Shown here piece after piece: positions 1 through 4,071 of a stretch of 4,071 bases of DNA. The notes beneath the pieces were generated by a model. That model ran no database searches. It saw only the letters and a program-made list of their open reading frames with translations, and had not been told where the DNA came from. Each line of letters begins with the position of its first letter. Positions within the stretch are counted from its first letter, which is position 1. The position numbers and the translations under genes were made by a program. The stretch is from a virus. Its lineage: Duplodnaviria > Heunggongvirae > Uroviricota > Caudoviricetes. The stretch lies in IMG/VR virus record IMGVR_UViG_2778261176_000005. The stretch is one strand, 5' to 3'.

Positions 1-103
1 GCATATCGGTAATAGTGTCAATGACTGGTGTCTGGTTGTCCTTTTTTATCGACAGTGCACCAGCTCCGACGATTGTCGTCTTATTCGCGGTTGTGTTCAT
101 CAT
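1..103 (-). CDS. hypothetical protein, N-terminal part only (gene starts in window and runs past position 1)
   Basis: Tandem ATG ATG at 103..98 with GGTGA five nt upstream; frame is open to the window edge, with an in-frame stop upstream at 178..176. Translation MMNTTANKTTIVGAGALSIKKDNQTPVIDTITDM... is not recognised. The opposite strand is also open here (see findings), so strand assignment is uncertain. Confidence 0.3.
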   Translation of the reverse strand, partial: MMNTTANKTTIVGAGALSIKKDNQTPVIDTITDM

Positions 104-316
104 GACGTTCACCGTTACCAGCATCAACGCACGCACAAAGGGAAACACCCATACACAGGATTTGTCATCACCCAATTAGCACAACATCCGAGGGCAGCAT
201 CGTCCGCTGGCCCACAGAAGTCCGGAAAGTCATGGAAGGTCGTTGTTGGGAGGAGGTACAAATTCTCTCATGCAAAAAATACGTAAAATCGATAATAGCT
301 GGAAATAATTCAATAC

Positions 317-377
317 ATGCACTCTCGAAAGTGCATCAGCCAACCGCAGAACGTTATTGCATACAACGTTTCTGCGG
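317..377. terminator. two adjacent stem-loops downstream of the tfa remnant; possible terminator between transcription units
   Basis: Hairpin A 317..336: ATGCAC/GTGCAT 6-bp stem, 8-nt loop. Hairpin B 344..377: CCGCAGA-ACGTT paired with AACGTTTCTGCGG, with a 1-nt bulge. On the minus strand hairpin A is followed by a moderately T-rich tract (GTATTGAATTATTTCC), not a clean U-run. Confidence 0.3.
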
Positions 378-391
378 CATAATCCCAATGA

Positions 392-520
392 TTACTCCCT
401 GACAGGGTTCGTAGGCCACTCAATATCAGGTGCAGTTGATGTATCAACACGGTTCAGCAGCATCCGATACTTTTTCCAAGCTTCCAGCAACGGGGTTTCT
501 TCCTCCGTTGCATATACAGC
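392..520 (-). pseudogene. tfa: tail fibre assembly protein (Tfa) 3' remnant; conserved C-terminal segment only, no start codon or N-terminal domain
   Basis: Minus-strand frame 520..392 translates [42 protein letters not shown]. This matches the C-terminus of phage lambda Tfa as I recall it (...[39 protein letters not shown]). An in-frame TGA at 523..521 sits directly upstream, and the same frame further upstream is Cys/Trp-rich nonsense. Only an internal ATG (463..461) and a TTG (490..488) are available as starts, neither with a good SD. Confidence 0.75.
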
Positions 521-530
521 TCACCTTTTT

Positions 531-671
531 TCACCCACGATTAACCAACAGCCAGACCAGCAGACACGCCACCACCGGCACAGCAAAATCCATAAGGCTT
601 GCCACATCCCACACGCGCGGATCAAAACCGCCCCACCACGGCATATTCATACGCTTGCCATGCCCGAACAT
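531..671 (-). CDS. speculative small ORF (46 aa) with a predicted single transmembrane helix
   Basis: ATG 671..669 to TGA 533..531. Translation MFGHGKRMNMPWWGGFDPRVWDVASLMDFAVPVVACLLVWLLVNRG has an uncharged C-terminal stretch (FAVPVVACLLVWLLV) of roughly 15-20 residues, plausible for one TM segment. Weak SD (TGGAT). An in-frame TAG precedes the ATG, so there is no longer version. Confidence 0.2.
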   Translation of the reverse strand: MFGHGKRMNMPWWGGFDPRVWDVASLMDFAVPVVACLLVWLLVNRG

Positions 672-1179
672 TTCAATCCAGCGATATTCTGCCTAGGTGT
701 GTTCACGCGCAATGAAGAACGTACAACCGGCTATAGCTCTGTAAGCCCAGTTTCCGATAAGAAAGTGAGCGAATTAGATGATTAATCCTTTATATTCAAT
801 GCAATAGAATCAATTTTGAGGGGTTTTAAGGATTAGTGTAACAATACAGGTAATTCCATTGATATCAGTCTATTGCAATCTTGTTTTGGAGAATAGTTTC
901 GAGCACTTTTAATCTCTGCTATCACTTTTTCACCAAGGCTCTTTTATAGCTCTCCACTTAAAAACCCCGTCTGCTAAAATAGCCGGGATTATCATTTGTT
1001 AAAGAAAAATTCCTAAAATCCCCGCCAGCACAAACAATCACTTGCTCATTCATGCTTTATCAAGAAAATATCCCTGCAAGTTGTGTTGTTTCTTTCTGCG
1101 TCCCGACAGGGTGTTATGGTTCCCCACTTCTCTCGGGACGGACACTTAACGGACGGAAAATTTTCAGGTGTCATTCAGA

Positions 1180-1215
1180 CGTGCTTCGCCCCGGATTGGC
1201 AAAGCACGCTTTTTT
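1180..1215 (+). terminator. rho-independent terminator-like hairpin oriented on the plus strand, abutting the stop codon of the minus-strand fibre gene
   Basis: Stem 1180..1186 (CGTGCTT) pairs with 1202..1208 (AAGCACG); inner GCC/GGC pairs around a CCGGATT loop; then C and TTTTTT at 1210..1215. On the minus strand the same hairpin is preceded by an A-run and not followed by a U-run, so it is a plus-strand terminator or a 3' UTR stabiliser for stf. Confidence 0.5.
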
Positions 1216-1220
1216 CTGTC

Positions 1221-3962
1221 TCAGCTCATCCCGTTTTGTGACAGTGTTGTTCCGACAATCAATTTAACCAGCAGTTTGCAGGGTAATACTCCCCCTTCAG
1301 CATTCGCTTCTTCATCCAGTGTTTTCATATTCAGCGCATACCAGGGCGCGCCCTGCATAACCGCGCATACATCCACCGTCACAGTGCTGTTTGTCGCCGA
1401 AACTGCATTCACAAAATACTGTGCTGGTACATAGCGTCGCTCCTGATCCATATAGAGATAGCCTGGTTCAATCAGCGCCGACATAAATACCCCGATACCA
1501 CCAACGACGCCTTTCTTCAGTGGATTGGTAATTTCCAGCGTGAGTGCATAAACCCGTGAACCGTCGGGCAGACTCCTGAAAGTATCCAGGTTTGAATTCA
1601 GGCTTTTTGTTGCCACCTTGGGTATAACCGGATGCGCACCATCAACAAACAATGCGTCTGACTGCTTTTTCAACAGATTTGTTTTCGATGAAAGGATTTG
1701 TGGCACCGCCTCCCTGTACCACATTTTCGTTGTCGCGTTGTAGACAAAATTGACTGAACTGCCTGAACTGAGCTGTGCGGGAACATCAGGAATTTGTACA
1801 CCACGGGAGATAAATGATACCCGTGCAATATCATTTTTCGCAGCAATCGAAAGGCGTCCGCCATCCGCTGCACCTGAAACCAGATTAAACTGGATATATG
1901 ACAGCGACGAATCATTATCCACAAATAATACCGTATTATCATTCAGGTCATTCACAACAATCTGCGCATTGTCGACCGGGGTAACGTGTCTGATGTCATG
2001 CGTGAAAAATTCAATATCGCCTCCACCAATGACTGAGCGCCCGTTGATGCGCATAAAATCGCCCACCTGTAATTCAGGTGTTCGCCCCCAGCTGGCAACC
2101 GATATTGCCGACACGACATCAGATATTGTCACCCGGGCTGTTCTTCTCATCTGAACGCGCTTTATTGCCACGTTCACAGCCCCTTCTGAGCCTGTCACCT
2201 TACCTGCCCAGGCAAAAAAATCGCTCAGCGCAAACTCATCAATGCCCGCATAATTCTGATACAGATCCGGGTATGATTTGTTCAGTGCATCAAGAACCGC
2301 CCGGCCATATGTTTCAATTTCATCATGTGTACTGAGAACCCCAAAACGCCACGGTGCTACCGAAAAACGATCTTTCTGAACAAAACGTTGCCAGGATGCC
2401 TGTTCAGGATAGTCTGCTTCTCCCCAGTATGTTCTGAAACGACAGGCTGACGGTTCGAACAGAGATAATATTCCGTTCCTGATTTTATTCAGCGCCGCTG
2501 TATATCGTTCCTTCGCCTCTGCATCATCAAGCAGCTGGCAGAGCGATACCAGGCCCCGTAACCCGGCATACACTTCGGCATTATCCTGACAAAAATACAG
2601 CTCATACTGATTTCCCCCTGGTGCCCTGTTATTCTGGAACACCCGGGTCAGATTATACGGCCCTGTCTGACTGACCAGATTATTGTCTGCAACGCGACAA
2701 ATAACATCCCAGCGACTGTAACCGGCCACACCGGACGGCTCCAGTAACCAGGCTTTATCCGCAAAAGTGGCAATACAGGCGAGCCACAATGCTGCGTAGC
2801 TGTCCGTTGAGTCCGGTGCAACCGGATACCGGAGTGATGAATCAATATCCACAAAAAACCACTGCCATGATTCCGGAATTTCTTTAACCGTATTTCCCAG
2901 GCATTCCAGAACCAGTGTTCCTGTTCGCACAAAATCGCCACGTGATACAGTGCTGACATCGGGAACCGAATCCCCCGACACACCGGAAATATTGACATAA
3001 AAAAGTTTATTCCCGACCACAATTCGCTGACCGGAAATATATGAACTGTTGGTCTGAAAGGGTACAAATATTCCCAGCGTTATCGCCTTTTCACAGACAG
3101 TCTTCCTGTCCGCAAGCGTAAAAACCTTTCCTTCACTCTCATACATTGCGAGGAAGAGAAAATACCAGTTAATACCGCCTGATGCGGTCAGATAGCGATA
3201 CAGCCCATGACAGGCACCACCGGATATTTTAAGACTGGCAAGATAACCATTCAGATCCGTTACAGAGTACCGGGTTGATACTGCCTGGTGCGCATCAATA
3301 AATCCCCGAACGCTTTCTGCCGCCTCTTCAGCATCCCGGGCATCCTGTTTCGTTGCCTCCCTGTCTGATGCCGTGGCTTCCGCGTTCTTTCTGGCCTCAC
3401 TCGCAAAACGTTCCGCATCATTGCGGGCTGATGCTGCTGCCGCTGCATCCTGTCCTGTCTGAGCCGCTTTCTTTTCCGCATTTTGTGCATGACGTTGTGC
3501 GTTTCGCTCACTTTCTGCAGAATCTCCGGCTGCCTTTTTGGCATCATCTGCCGCCACTACAGCATCATGTGCCGCCTGTTGTATTTGTTCGCTGTCGCCC
3601 CGGACACCTTCGGCTATACGGTTAATTTCCGCTGCAATATCTTCAAAGCGTTTGAGAATATCCGGACGAAGATCATCTTCACTCACGGCCCCCAGGAAAT
3701 AATTCAGCGTGCCCGGCGGCGAATCCGCATACACAGTAATGTCACCGGCATATGACGGTGGATACCCCTCAATAAAAAGCGAAACGGCATACCGCCCCGG
3801 CTCAACATTCATGCTGTAACGCCCGGCTTCATCCGGATTTTCTGAGGCAAGGGTATTCACTATCACGGTATCGGTCGTTCTTTTTGCCTTCAGAACGATC
3901 GTACACCCCTGAACAGGTTTTCCTGTGCCATCCTTCAGCACACCGGAAATCAGAACAGACAT
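1221..3962 (-). CDS. stf: phage side tail fibre protein (lambdoid Stf-like), 913 aa: conserved N-terminal domain, Ala/Asp/Glu-rich linker, divergent C-terminal domain
   Basis: Single long minus-strand ORF (track ORF 1221..4004). I take the start as the second ATG at 3962..3960: it has GGAGG four nt upstream and gives MSVLISGVLKDGTGKPVQGCTIVLKAKR..., which parallels the lambda Stf N-terminus as recalled (MAVKISGVLKDGTGKPVQNCTIQLKARR...). Stop TGA at 1223..1221. Gene order lom - stf - tfa matches lambda. Confidence 0.9.
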   Translation of the reverse strand: MSVLISGVLKDGTGKPVQGCTIVLKAKRTTDTVIVNTLASENPDEAGRYSMNVEPGRYAVSLFIEGYPPSYAGDITVYADSPPGTLNYFLGAVSEDDLRPDILKRFEDIAAEINRIAEGVRGDSEQIQQAAHDAVVAADDAKKAAGDSAESERNAQRHAQNAEKKAAQTGQDAAAAASARNDAERFASEARKNAEATASDREATKQDARDAEEAAESVRGFIDAHQAVSTRYSVTDLNGYLASLKISGGACHGLYRYLTASGGINWYFLFLAMYESEGKVFTLADRKTVCEKAITLGIFVPFQTNSSYISGQRIVVGNKLFYVNISGVSGDSVPDVSTVSRGDFVRTGTLVLECLGNTVKEIPESWQWFFVDIDSSLRYPVAPDSTDSYAALWLACIATFADKAWLLEPSGVAGYSRWDVICRVADNNLVSQTGPYNLTRVFQNNRAPGGNQYELYFCQDNAEVYAGLRGLVSLCQLLDDAEAKERYTAALNKIRNGILSLFEPSACRFRTYWGEADYPEQASWQRFVQKDRFSVAPWRFGVLSTHDEIETYGRAVLDALNKSYPDLYQNYAGIDEFALSDFFAWAGKVTGSEGAVNVAIKRVQMRRTARVTISDVVSAISVASWGRTPELQVGDFMRINGRSVIGGGDIEFFTHDIRHVTPVDNAQIVVNDLNDNTVLFVDNDSSLSYIQFNLVSGAADGGRLSIAAKNDIARVSFISRGVQIPDVPAQLSSGSSVNFVYNATTKMWYREAVPQILSSKTNLLKKQSDALFVDGAHPVIPKVATKSLNSNLDTFRSLPDGSRVYALTLEITNPLKKGVVGGIGVFMSALIEPGYLYMDQERRYVPAQYFVNAVSATNSTVTVDVCAVMQGAPWYALNMKTLDEEANAEGGVLPCKLLVKLIVGTTLSQNGMS

Positions 3963-3966
3963 ATGT

Positions 3967-3971
3967 CCTCC
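3967..3971 (-). promoter_or_regulatory. Shine-Dalgarno sequence (GGAGG) for stf
   Basis: Minus-strand sequence reads TGGTGGAGGACAT then ATG; GGAGG lies four nt before the ATG at 3962..3960. Confidence 0.6.
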
Positions 3972-3972
3972 A

Positions 3973-3998
3973 CCAAAAGGCCCGCACGAACTGCGGGC
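3973..3998 (-). terminator. intergenic GC-rich hairpin with short T-tract between lom and stf; candidate terminator or attenuator
   Basis: Minus strand reads GCCCGCA-GTTCG-TGCGGGC followed by CTTTTGG (plus-strand arms 3980..3986 and 3992..3998, A-tract 3975..3978). 7-bp stem, 5-nt loop, only four U, so probably a partial terminator; it sits immediately upstream of the stf SD. Confidence 0.4.
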
Positions 3999-4025
3999 TG
4001 TCACAACGCGATATTCCCTGGCTAA

Positions 4026-4071
4026 TCAGAATTTATAACCGACACCCACGATGAAACCGTCAGTGCGCCAG
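4026..4071 (-). CDS. lom: Lom-family (Ail/OmpX-like) outer-membrane beta-barrel protein, C-terminal 14 codons plus stop; gene continues past the right edge
   Basis: Minus-strand translation of 4070..4026 is WRTDGFIVGVGYKF*, identical to the C-terminus of lambda Lom as I recall it (...GDWRTDGFIVGVGYKF). It also carries the aromatic C-terminal Phe signature of outer-membrane barrels and sits immediately upstream of stf as in lambda. Confidence 0.8.
   Translation of the reverse strand, partial: WRTDGFIVGVGYKF

Follow-up and report, generated by a model that had tools for sequence, protein, structure and literature searches.

Tfa is built from a variable N-terminal domain, which binds the fibre, and a conserved C-terminal helical domain, as described in PMC9608196, which cites North et al. 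2019. This layout explains why the 3′ end of tfa survives and recombines, and it fits with the conserved C-terminal part being the portion most likely to serve as homology common to phages. Stranded pieces of the gene are not new. In the b region of lambdoid prophages, incomplete copies of tfa often lie beside a SAM methyltransferase gene or other cargo (the 2G7b and 504239 contexts), and tfaD and tfaX of DLP12, a cryptic prophage of K-12, are presumably of the same kind. The fragment described here is itself already known, as a commonplace mosaic scar and a routinely annotated pseudogene with thousands of records; PGAP labels the same stretch in strains A41 and 042 'tail fiber assembly protein, incomplete, missing N-terminus'. 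What marks it off from tfaD, tfaX and the partial tfa genes of PGAP annotation is a fixed junction with hyp97, a gene for a 97-aa predicted membrane protein, and a usual linkage to sitABCD.

The window, by which we mean the whole stretch of 4,071 nt that was analysed (IMG/VR record IMGVR_UViG_2778261176_000005, Caudoviricetes), contains the right end of a lambdoid prophage in the order sitD, spacer, tfa fragment, hyp97, AT-rich stretch, fibre and lom (Table 1). The sitD gene is part of the sitABCD cargo cluster, found in the b region of lambdoid phages and prophages; in phage Lambda_2E9 the cluster is situated between the fibre genes and int. Positions 1-763 are 98.2% identical to E. coli 042, in which sitD ends at the equivalent of position 179, and positions 413-4071 are 99.8% identical to strain A41, an independent assembly with the same structure, whose prophage is a single Rac-type element with intR at ttcA. 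No tRNAs were found in the window, and a simple promoter/terminator scan of it returned nothing, the hairpins having either loops outside the limits of the scan or no T-run after them.

Table 1. Features of the 4,071-nt window, with coordinates counted from its first nucleotide
Feature	Position	Strand	Basis
3′ end of sitD (iron/manganese ABC transporter permease)	1..179	+	alignment with E. coli 042
Spacer, 212 nt, holding hairpin 340-378	between sitD end and tfa fragment		
Stable hairpin just 3′ of the tfa stop	340..378	-	folding
tfa pseudogene fragment, 42 codons plus stop at 392-394	392..520	-	Pfam, PHROGs, tblastn, PGAP annotation in A41 and 042
In-frame TGA closing the tfa frame	521..523	-	translation; alignment with lambda, 042, 2G7b and Lambda_2E9
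hyp97 pseudogene (97-aa predicted membrane protein, phrog_1443), residues 21-97	531..764	-	tblastn, PHROG, PGAP
Remnant of the att core of potB-integrating lambdoid phages, ATAAGAAAGTG vs core TGAATAAGAAGGTG	757..767		
Fibre-side arm of potB-type attP, AT-rich, 31-39% GC	757..1002		SC516 alignment, composition
Conserved non-coding 3′ flank of the fibre gene, hairpins 1099-1140 and 1180-1208	1002..1220		
Side tail fibre, intact, 913 aa	1221..3962	-	Pfam, PDB match, PHROG, AF2
3′ end of lom (Ail/Lom outer-membrane protein gene)	4026..4071	-	transferred from A41 annotation

Translation of the minus strand over 392-700 yields 42 sense codons at 395-520, followed by the stop at 392-394 and preceded by the TGA at 521-523, which sits ten codons ahead of LLEAW, just as the earlier note had described the truncation of a conserved Tfa C-terminus. 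The frame contains the conserved Tfa C-terminal pattern (...W..YR..L.RVD...APDI.WP) and matches Pfam Caudo_TAP (PF02413) over positions 95-130 of 131 (hmmscan, E = 1.8e-16), as well as PHROG tail-fibre-assembly families at E = 1e-11 to 1e-17. Residues 156-194 of lambda Tfa (orf-194) align to window positions 511..395 with 84.6% identity (tblastn, E = 1.4e-17) and about 90% identity at the DNA level; the LLEAWKKYR match, whose significance had been left to a real search, is thus far beyond chance. The figure of 42 surviving codons holds for the open frame, whereas the homology to tfa spans 39: the DNA homology to lambda begins at about 512 and runs down to 342, covering these 39 codons and 51 nt of the 3′ flank of lambda tfa, a flank of roughly 50 nt that the two sequences have in common. 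The alignment against lambda that the earlier note had called for therefore locates the breakpoint at about 512/513. Upstream of 512 the relationship to tfa is gone, so the TGA belongs to foreign DNA rather than being a mutated tfa codon.

Lambda Tfa residues 1-155, which make up the fibre-binding N-terminal domain, are unmatched in any frame of the window, and the fragment has no start codon. Searches of the window with seven different Tfa proteins, lambda Tfa and six others, returned no N-terminal domain in any frame (tblastn, all E > 1), and this part of the earlier reading stands. Nor is the fragment adjacent to the fibre; the stop codon of the fibre is at 1221 and the fragment begins at 520, with a pseudogene and an att arm in between. 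Since the C-terminal domain is the only attribute of a Tfa chaperone that is present, the N-terminal domain, an intact reading frame and adjacency to the fibre all being absent, the fragment is a dead piece of a tfa pseudogene, without chaperone function.

The neighbour of the fragment is also a pseudogene. The intact hyp97 protein of 042 matches phrog_1443 (E = 5.8e-59), and its residues 21-97 align to window positions 764..534 with 92% identity (tblastn, E = 4e-47). In the window copy a substitution at 695 has turned a Gln codon into TAG (693-695), and the first 20 codons are lost at a junction at 756/757, so that no full-length 97-aa reading frame is left. A41 carries the same pseudogene, with the PGAP note 'internal stop; incomplete'. 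The stretch from 521 to 1220, treated as empty in the earlier note, accordingly holds the hyp97 pseudogene (531-764) and an att arm (757-1220).

E. coli 042, phage 2G7b and phage Lambda_2E9 carry fibres other than this one and have, base for base, the breakpoint in tfa that the window has. Of 5426 complete E. coli genomes, 1737 (32%) match a 91-nt probe spanning the junction (470-560) at a coverage of at least 80%, with up to four copies in a genome, and the junction occurs as well in the inducible lambdoid phages 2G7b, PhiR49, HannyBb, phage 21 and the Lambda_ev series. In these elements delta-tfa is always preceded by hyp97, the phage 21 copy of which is named 'putative membrane protein'. 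The module of 042, 2G7b, PhiR49, HannyBb, 21 and Lambda_ev is 94-98% identical to window positions 392-763 and shares the tfa breakpoint; hyp97 is intact (97 aa) in those elements, whereas the window copy lacks 20 codons and has gained a nonsense codon. What lies upstream of hyp97 varies. In 042 and 2G7b it is a fibre with a Peptidase_S74 intramolecular chaperone; in Lambda_2E9 and T309.Ta3 a 93-aa ORF precedes it directly; and the hyp97-delta-tfa block, preceded by different fibres, turns up at the sit/ttcA, potB and ompW loci. A breakpoint shared by many genomes and phages at several loci argues that the truncation of tfa was a single old event that was inherited and spread as a module. We suggest that a cassette ending in hyp97 would once, long ago, have replaced the 5′ 155 codons of a lambda-like tfa, and that hyp97-delta-tfa would from then on have travelled as one unit within the b region of lambdoid phages and prophages, in many cases beside sitABCD.

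The fibre has a very different distribution. It is present in 2 of the 5426 complete E. coli genomes, A41 and AH19B041, and the junction that joins its flank to hyp97 (probed as 640-900) occurs among them in A41 only. With the gain of the fibre recent and rare, and the truncation of tfa old and common, the two must be different events, and the fragment is very probably a pseudogene remnant inherited from long ago that has nothing to do with how this fibre was acquired. The lesson is that a scar beside a gene need not record the history of that gene; here the fragment is older than the fibre, and two further breakpoints lie between the fragment and the fibre.

The sequence between hyp97 and the fibre has a recognizable source. 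Window positions 757-1254 are 93.8% identical to the SC516 stretch between the att core in potB and the 3′ end of the final prophage gene, which shows that 757-1220 derives from the fibre-side att arm of a potB-integrating lambdoid phage. The potB gene is a published integration locus of lambdoid prophages (PMC9997748). Comparison of the K-12 potB-potC attB with attL and attR of SC516 yields a 14-bp core, TGAATAAGAAGGTG; the window retains 11 of the 14 core positions with one mismatch (10/14 bases), the first three bases being replaced by hyp97 sequence. Positions 757-785 correspond to the phage-borne replacement codons for the 3′ end of potB. In attR of SC516 this arm adjoins potB itself, whereas in the window it is fused to a phage gene within a prophage at ttcA. 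The portion nearest the fibre, 1002-1237, belongs to a non-coding block (mean identity about 93%) found at the ends of lambdoid prophages at potB, ompW, tRNA-Ser and ttcA/sit loci. On the plus strand the hairpin at 1180-1208 is followed by T6 and looks like a terminator, putatively for outside transcription converging on the fibre gene; the RM11911 copy of the 1002-1220 block shows one compensatory change, from U-A to C-G. We considered a coding gene or a decayed chaperone in 766-1220 and rejected both, as none of the ten ORFs on both strands of 357-1434, eight of which cover 766-1220, has a Pfam or PHROG match; Rfam over 766-1220 also gave nothing. Positions 1002-1005 are a recurrent boundary among the scraps found at prophage ends, a breakpoint other than att.

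On its right-hand side the fibre swap joins at 756/757, a position within hyp97 some 245 nt away from the breakpoint in tfa. The window, ...CCCAGTTTCCG|ATAAGAAAGTGAGCGAATTAG..., tracks 042 (...CCCAGTTCCCGGTAAAAAGACCAATCAG...) as far as 756 and the potB-type arm (SC516, ...TTTGCTGAATAAGAAGGTGAGCGAATTAG...) from 757 onward; it reads CCG|ATAAGAAAGTG where hyp97 of 042 has CCGGTAAAAAGACC, which puts the join three bases inside the 14-bp att core. This position bears on how the fibre was gained. The fibre would have come later than the truncation and separately, in a segment comprising lom, the fibre, its 3′ flank and the potB att arm that became joined to a resident hyp97-delta-tfa-sit block. Lambdoid phages package DNA with ends at cos rather than att; a block bounded by att therefore suggests site-specific recombination. 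On the simplest and most likely route, the integrase of a potB-type phage would have recombined its attP with a similar site within the hyp97 gene of a resident, sit-carrying prophage. The candidate site is GGTAAAAAGACC, where the hyp97 target reads GTAAAAA against the central core bases ATAAGAA, a match at 5 of 7. The resulting tandem would have collapsed through homologous recombination between the duplicated tail genes, leaving a single chimeric Rac-type prophage with intR at ttcA, such as that of A41, in which hyp97 would then have decayed. On this integrase-plus-collapse route, to which we tentatively assign a chance approaching even, 756/757 would be the fossil attR of a potB-type phage that had inserted in hyp97 of the resident prophage. 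Persistence of the tandem in A41 can be set aside, given that this strain lacks a potB-type int and shows a single Rac-type prophage, whose intR lies at ttcA. If the route is correct and general, integrase-mediated insertion of one prophage into another would be a means of exchanging receptor-binding modules, one that in this instance would have delivered a rare side tail fibre with a predicted (alpha/alpha)6 glycosidase-like domain. A fibre-module junction right on an att core may in any case be of some side interest to phage biologists.

It is also quite possible, if somewhat short of an even chance, that random illegitimate or microhomology-mediated joining produced 756/757 and that the coincidence with the att core is due to chance, with the remainder of our explanation unchanged. 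A short TAA/AAG microhomology exists at the join, and prophage ends are full of scraps with non-att breakpoints, the recurrent boundary at 1002-1005 among them. Moreover, the reciprocal product expected of the integrase route, an int-side arm (...GTATCCCGCCTTATGAATAAGAAG) and core joined to the 5′ end of hyp97, is absent from the 5426 complete E. coli genomes. Three further points weigh against our own account: among complete E. coli genomes we found no potB lysogen with this exact 913-aa fibre, the hyp97 target agrees with the central 7 core bases at only 5-6 positions, and at least one additional recombination, between 520 and 594, has to be assumed. Against random joining, the break lies no more than 3 nt from the edge of a 14-bp core, when a random one could have fallen anywhere across kilobases of flanking DNA, and an end at att is not what packaged lambdoid DNA would supply.

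The wide retention of the delta-tfa block raises a second question, namely, whether it is kept for use: (i) as the 3′ end or terminator of the late operon, (ii) as a homology 'linker' for the exchange of fibre cassettes, or (iii) as a small RNA locus of the IS009 type. We think this unlikely. The block is indeed retained in inducible phages and in 32% of the genomes with 95-99% identity, although such identity is expected of phage DNA that has spread recently. Folding of 325-400 on the minus strand reveals a stable hairpin in the co-retained 3′ flank of tfa (-29.2 kcal/mol, z = -3.9), but phages of the Lambda_2E9 type have an even shorter fragment, cut at 455, and lack the hairpin with no apparent ill effect. 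The Rfam model IS009 matches 435-533 on the minus strand below threshold, with 62 bits against a gathering score of 117; we reject a small RNA here, as the model has no base pairs and the match reflects merely shared tfa sequence. Use as a linker draws on a mosaic boundary next to the fragment. Some 4% of positions in the hyp97 remnant carry a substitution specific to the window, while 1-530 and 042 scarcely differ, from which we infer at least one further crossover between 520 and 594, in or beside the tfa fragment; a boundary there suggests recombination in or next to the block.

The earlier note had proposed that one recombination swapped the C-terminus of the fibre together with the 5′ part of tfa and that the 42 codons are what it left behind as a scar. 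In these phages it is an established pattern that fibre cassettes are exchanged at the conserved 3′ sequence of tfa, and the fibre downstream of which the fragment sits does have a C-terminal module that lambda lacks. A genuine tfa fragment that is the scar of a recombination is what remains of the proposal; the event recorded is an older one, and a single swap is very improbable. The same breakpoint in tfa is found in 1737 genomes and in phages with other fibres, the hyp97 pseudogene and the potB att arm, 701 nt in all, part the fragment from the fibre, and the junction specific to this fibre lies outside tfa altogether. The occurrence of the fibre in two genomes further argues against descent of all 1737 copies from a carrier of it. 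That an intact tfa is masked by a sequencing error or frameshift, the possibility raised as a refutation, has practically no chance of being correct, because tblastn with seven types of Tfa gives the C-terminal fragment alone, the homology to lambda tfa ends abruptly at about 512, and A41, at 99.8% identity, has the same structure.

The fragment had also been taken to imply that the new C-terminal module of the fibre folds without a Tfa-type chaperone. The fragment was never the partner of this fibre and says nothing about its folding, so the implication fails, yet the conclusion is plausible on other grounds, namely, the contexts in which relatives of the fibre occur without tfa. In SC516 the prophage gene adjoining potB encodes a short fibre of 399 aa, and its tip shares 43% identity with the last 160 aa of the window fibre; the lambdoid prophage beside tRNA-Ser in AH19B041 has the fibre as its terminal gene; and Mu-like prophages end in full-length relatives. 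No tfa follows in any of these three settings, at potB (SC516), at tRNA-Ser (AH19B041) or in the Mu-like prophages, and no intact tfa is annotated in the prophage of A41 or in that of SC516. It would therefore seem that the fibre may fold independently of Tfa. As to a chaperone of its own, the 913-aa fibre has no Peptidase_S74 (PF13884) match at E <= 0.1 in Pfam, compared with E = 4.8e-14 for the 042 fibre in the same search. The last 260 aa consist of two predicted beta domains with weak PDB matches to beta-sandwich parts of phage proteins and produced no convincing structural match to a C-terminal intramolecular chaperone, a soft negative given that this region was modelled with moderate confidence (pLDDT 67).

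The remainder of the fibre identifies it as a lambda Stf-type protein by both domain and position. Its N-terminus (residues 1-134) matches phage_tail_N (PF08400, E = 1.5e-53) and the protein matches the N-terminus of the lambda tail fibre (PDB 9e7m, E = 3.7e-37), and in A41 lom and J lie upstream of the gene. The C-terminal 700 aa match phrog_33169 (E = 3.5e-279), and the fibre shares 99% identity with a cluster of 127 protein sequences. Its relatives are known only from prophages and metagenomes, a tblastn search with the C-terminal 659 aa having found none in deposited phage genomes. In layout, the Stf-type N-terminal domain is followed by an Ala-rich coiled region, a predicted (alpha/alpha)6 glycosidase-like domain and the two beta domains. 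The AlphaFold (AF2) model, built from 20 homologues, has a mean pLDDT of 75, with residues 30-410 of the modelled segment mostly at 80-98. Among solved structures, Foldseek ranks GH94 phosphorylases, MmpH and GH116 as closest in fold (probability 1.00, E of about 4e-4 to 1e-3, 10-14% identity), and relatives of the fibre carry precomputed matches to PF22422 (MGH1-like). From this model the fibre carries an (alpha/alpha)6 barrel that is glycosidase-like. A lambdoid side tail fibre predicted to contain such a domain, with no recognizable chaperone of its own and no Tfa partner, may be of side interest. Like the tailspike depolymerases, which are enzymatic phage receptor-binding proteins, the fibre joins a phage attachment N-terminus to a glycosidase-like, putatively catalytic domain; the usual fold in tailspikes is a beta-helix, whereas the window fibre is modelled with an (alpha/alpha)6 barrel. 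The family alignment of the fibre contains invariant Asp and Glu columns.

The junction between hyp97 (a gene for a 97-aa predicted membrane protein, here truncated) and the fibre block sits three bases into TGAATAAGAAGGTG, the 14-bp att core of potB-integrating phages, and looks like the fossil of an integrase-mediated insertion into another prophage. In strain T309.Ta3 (L022 4029-4690), a prophage integrated at potB carries, immediately next to its potB att core, the module formed by hyp97 and the tfa fragment (Δtfa, a piece of a tail-fibre-chaperone pseudogene), which indicates that this module and potB-type phages co-occur in nature.

Features of the window, with the matching positions in comparison sequences L005 and L018
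Feature	Position	Strand	Remark
Side tail fibre	window 1221-3962	(-)	carries (α/α)6-barrel glycosidase-like domain
Non-coding block 3′ of fibre, ~235 nt	window 1002-1237		~93% conserved
hyp97/fibre-block junction on potB-type att core	window 756-767; L005 5001-5029; L018 about 15616-15640

Of the 13 substitutions (5.6%) that separate the hyp97 remnant (window 531-763) from E. coli 042, about ten are window-specific; the sequence to the left of the remnant (1-530) shows a single difference from the same strain. This contrast in substitutions implies an additional recombination boundary, which on sequence comparison would fall between 520 and 594.

In place of the β-helix that is the usual depolymerase fold, the side tail fibre has the glycosidase-like domain listed in the table. 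Among 5426 complete E. coli genomes, just 2 contain the fibre, and its relatives, at 56-58% identity, are borne on fibre N-termini of the lambda, Mu and P2 types. In the ompW prophage of strain C012 (L007 4220-4342), the final 40 codons of a fibre of this type persist at 96% identity, unannotated, downstream of a different fibre; they are a leftover of the same kind as the tfa fragment.

The non-coding block that follows the fibre forms the end of lambdoid prophages at four distinct integration loci and contains two hairpins. On the plus strand the second hairpin is followed by T6, and its stem carries one compensatory change, U-A to C-G, in strain RM11911. The block may be a read-in terminator or else an unrecognised small RNA.

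In inducible lambdoid phages, the b region holds the iron/manganese transporter sitABCD as cargo, in phage Lambda_2E9 between the fibre genes and int (L004 2536-5985), and the sit genes beside the window's prophage (window 1-179) are thus phage-borne. In strain A41, sitD is separated from the tfa fragment by an inserted cluster of yciG/yciF/yciE-like genes and a manganese catalase gene (L001 2650-4863). Since the window lacks this cluster, its source is a relative of A41, not A41 itself; window 1-1400 is contiguous in none of the complete genomes of the collection.

The Rfam family IS009 matches window 435-533 (-) below threshold (62 bits vs a gathering score of 117). Its model lacks base pairs, and what aligns to the window is tfa 3′ coding sequence, so that the family itself appears to have been built on a tfa fragment.
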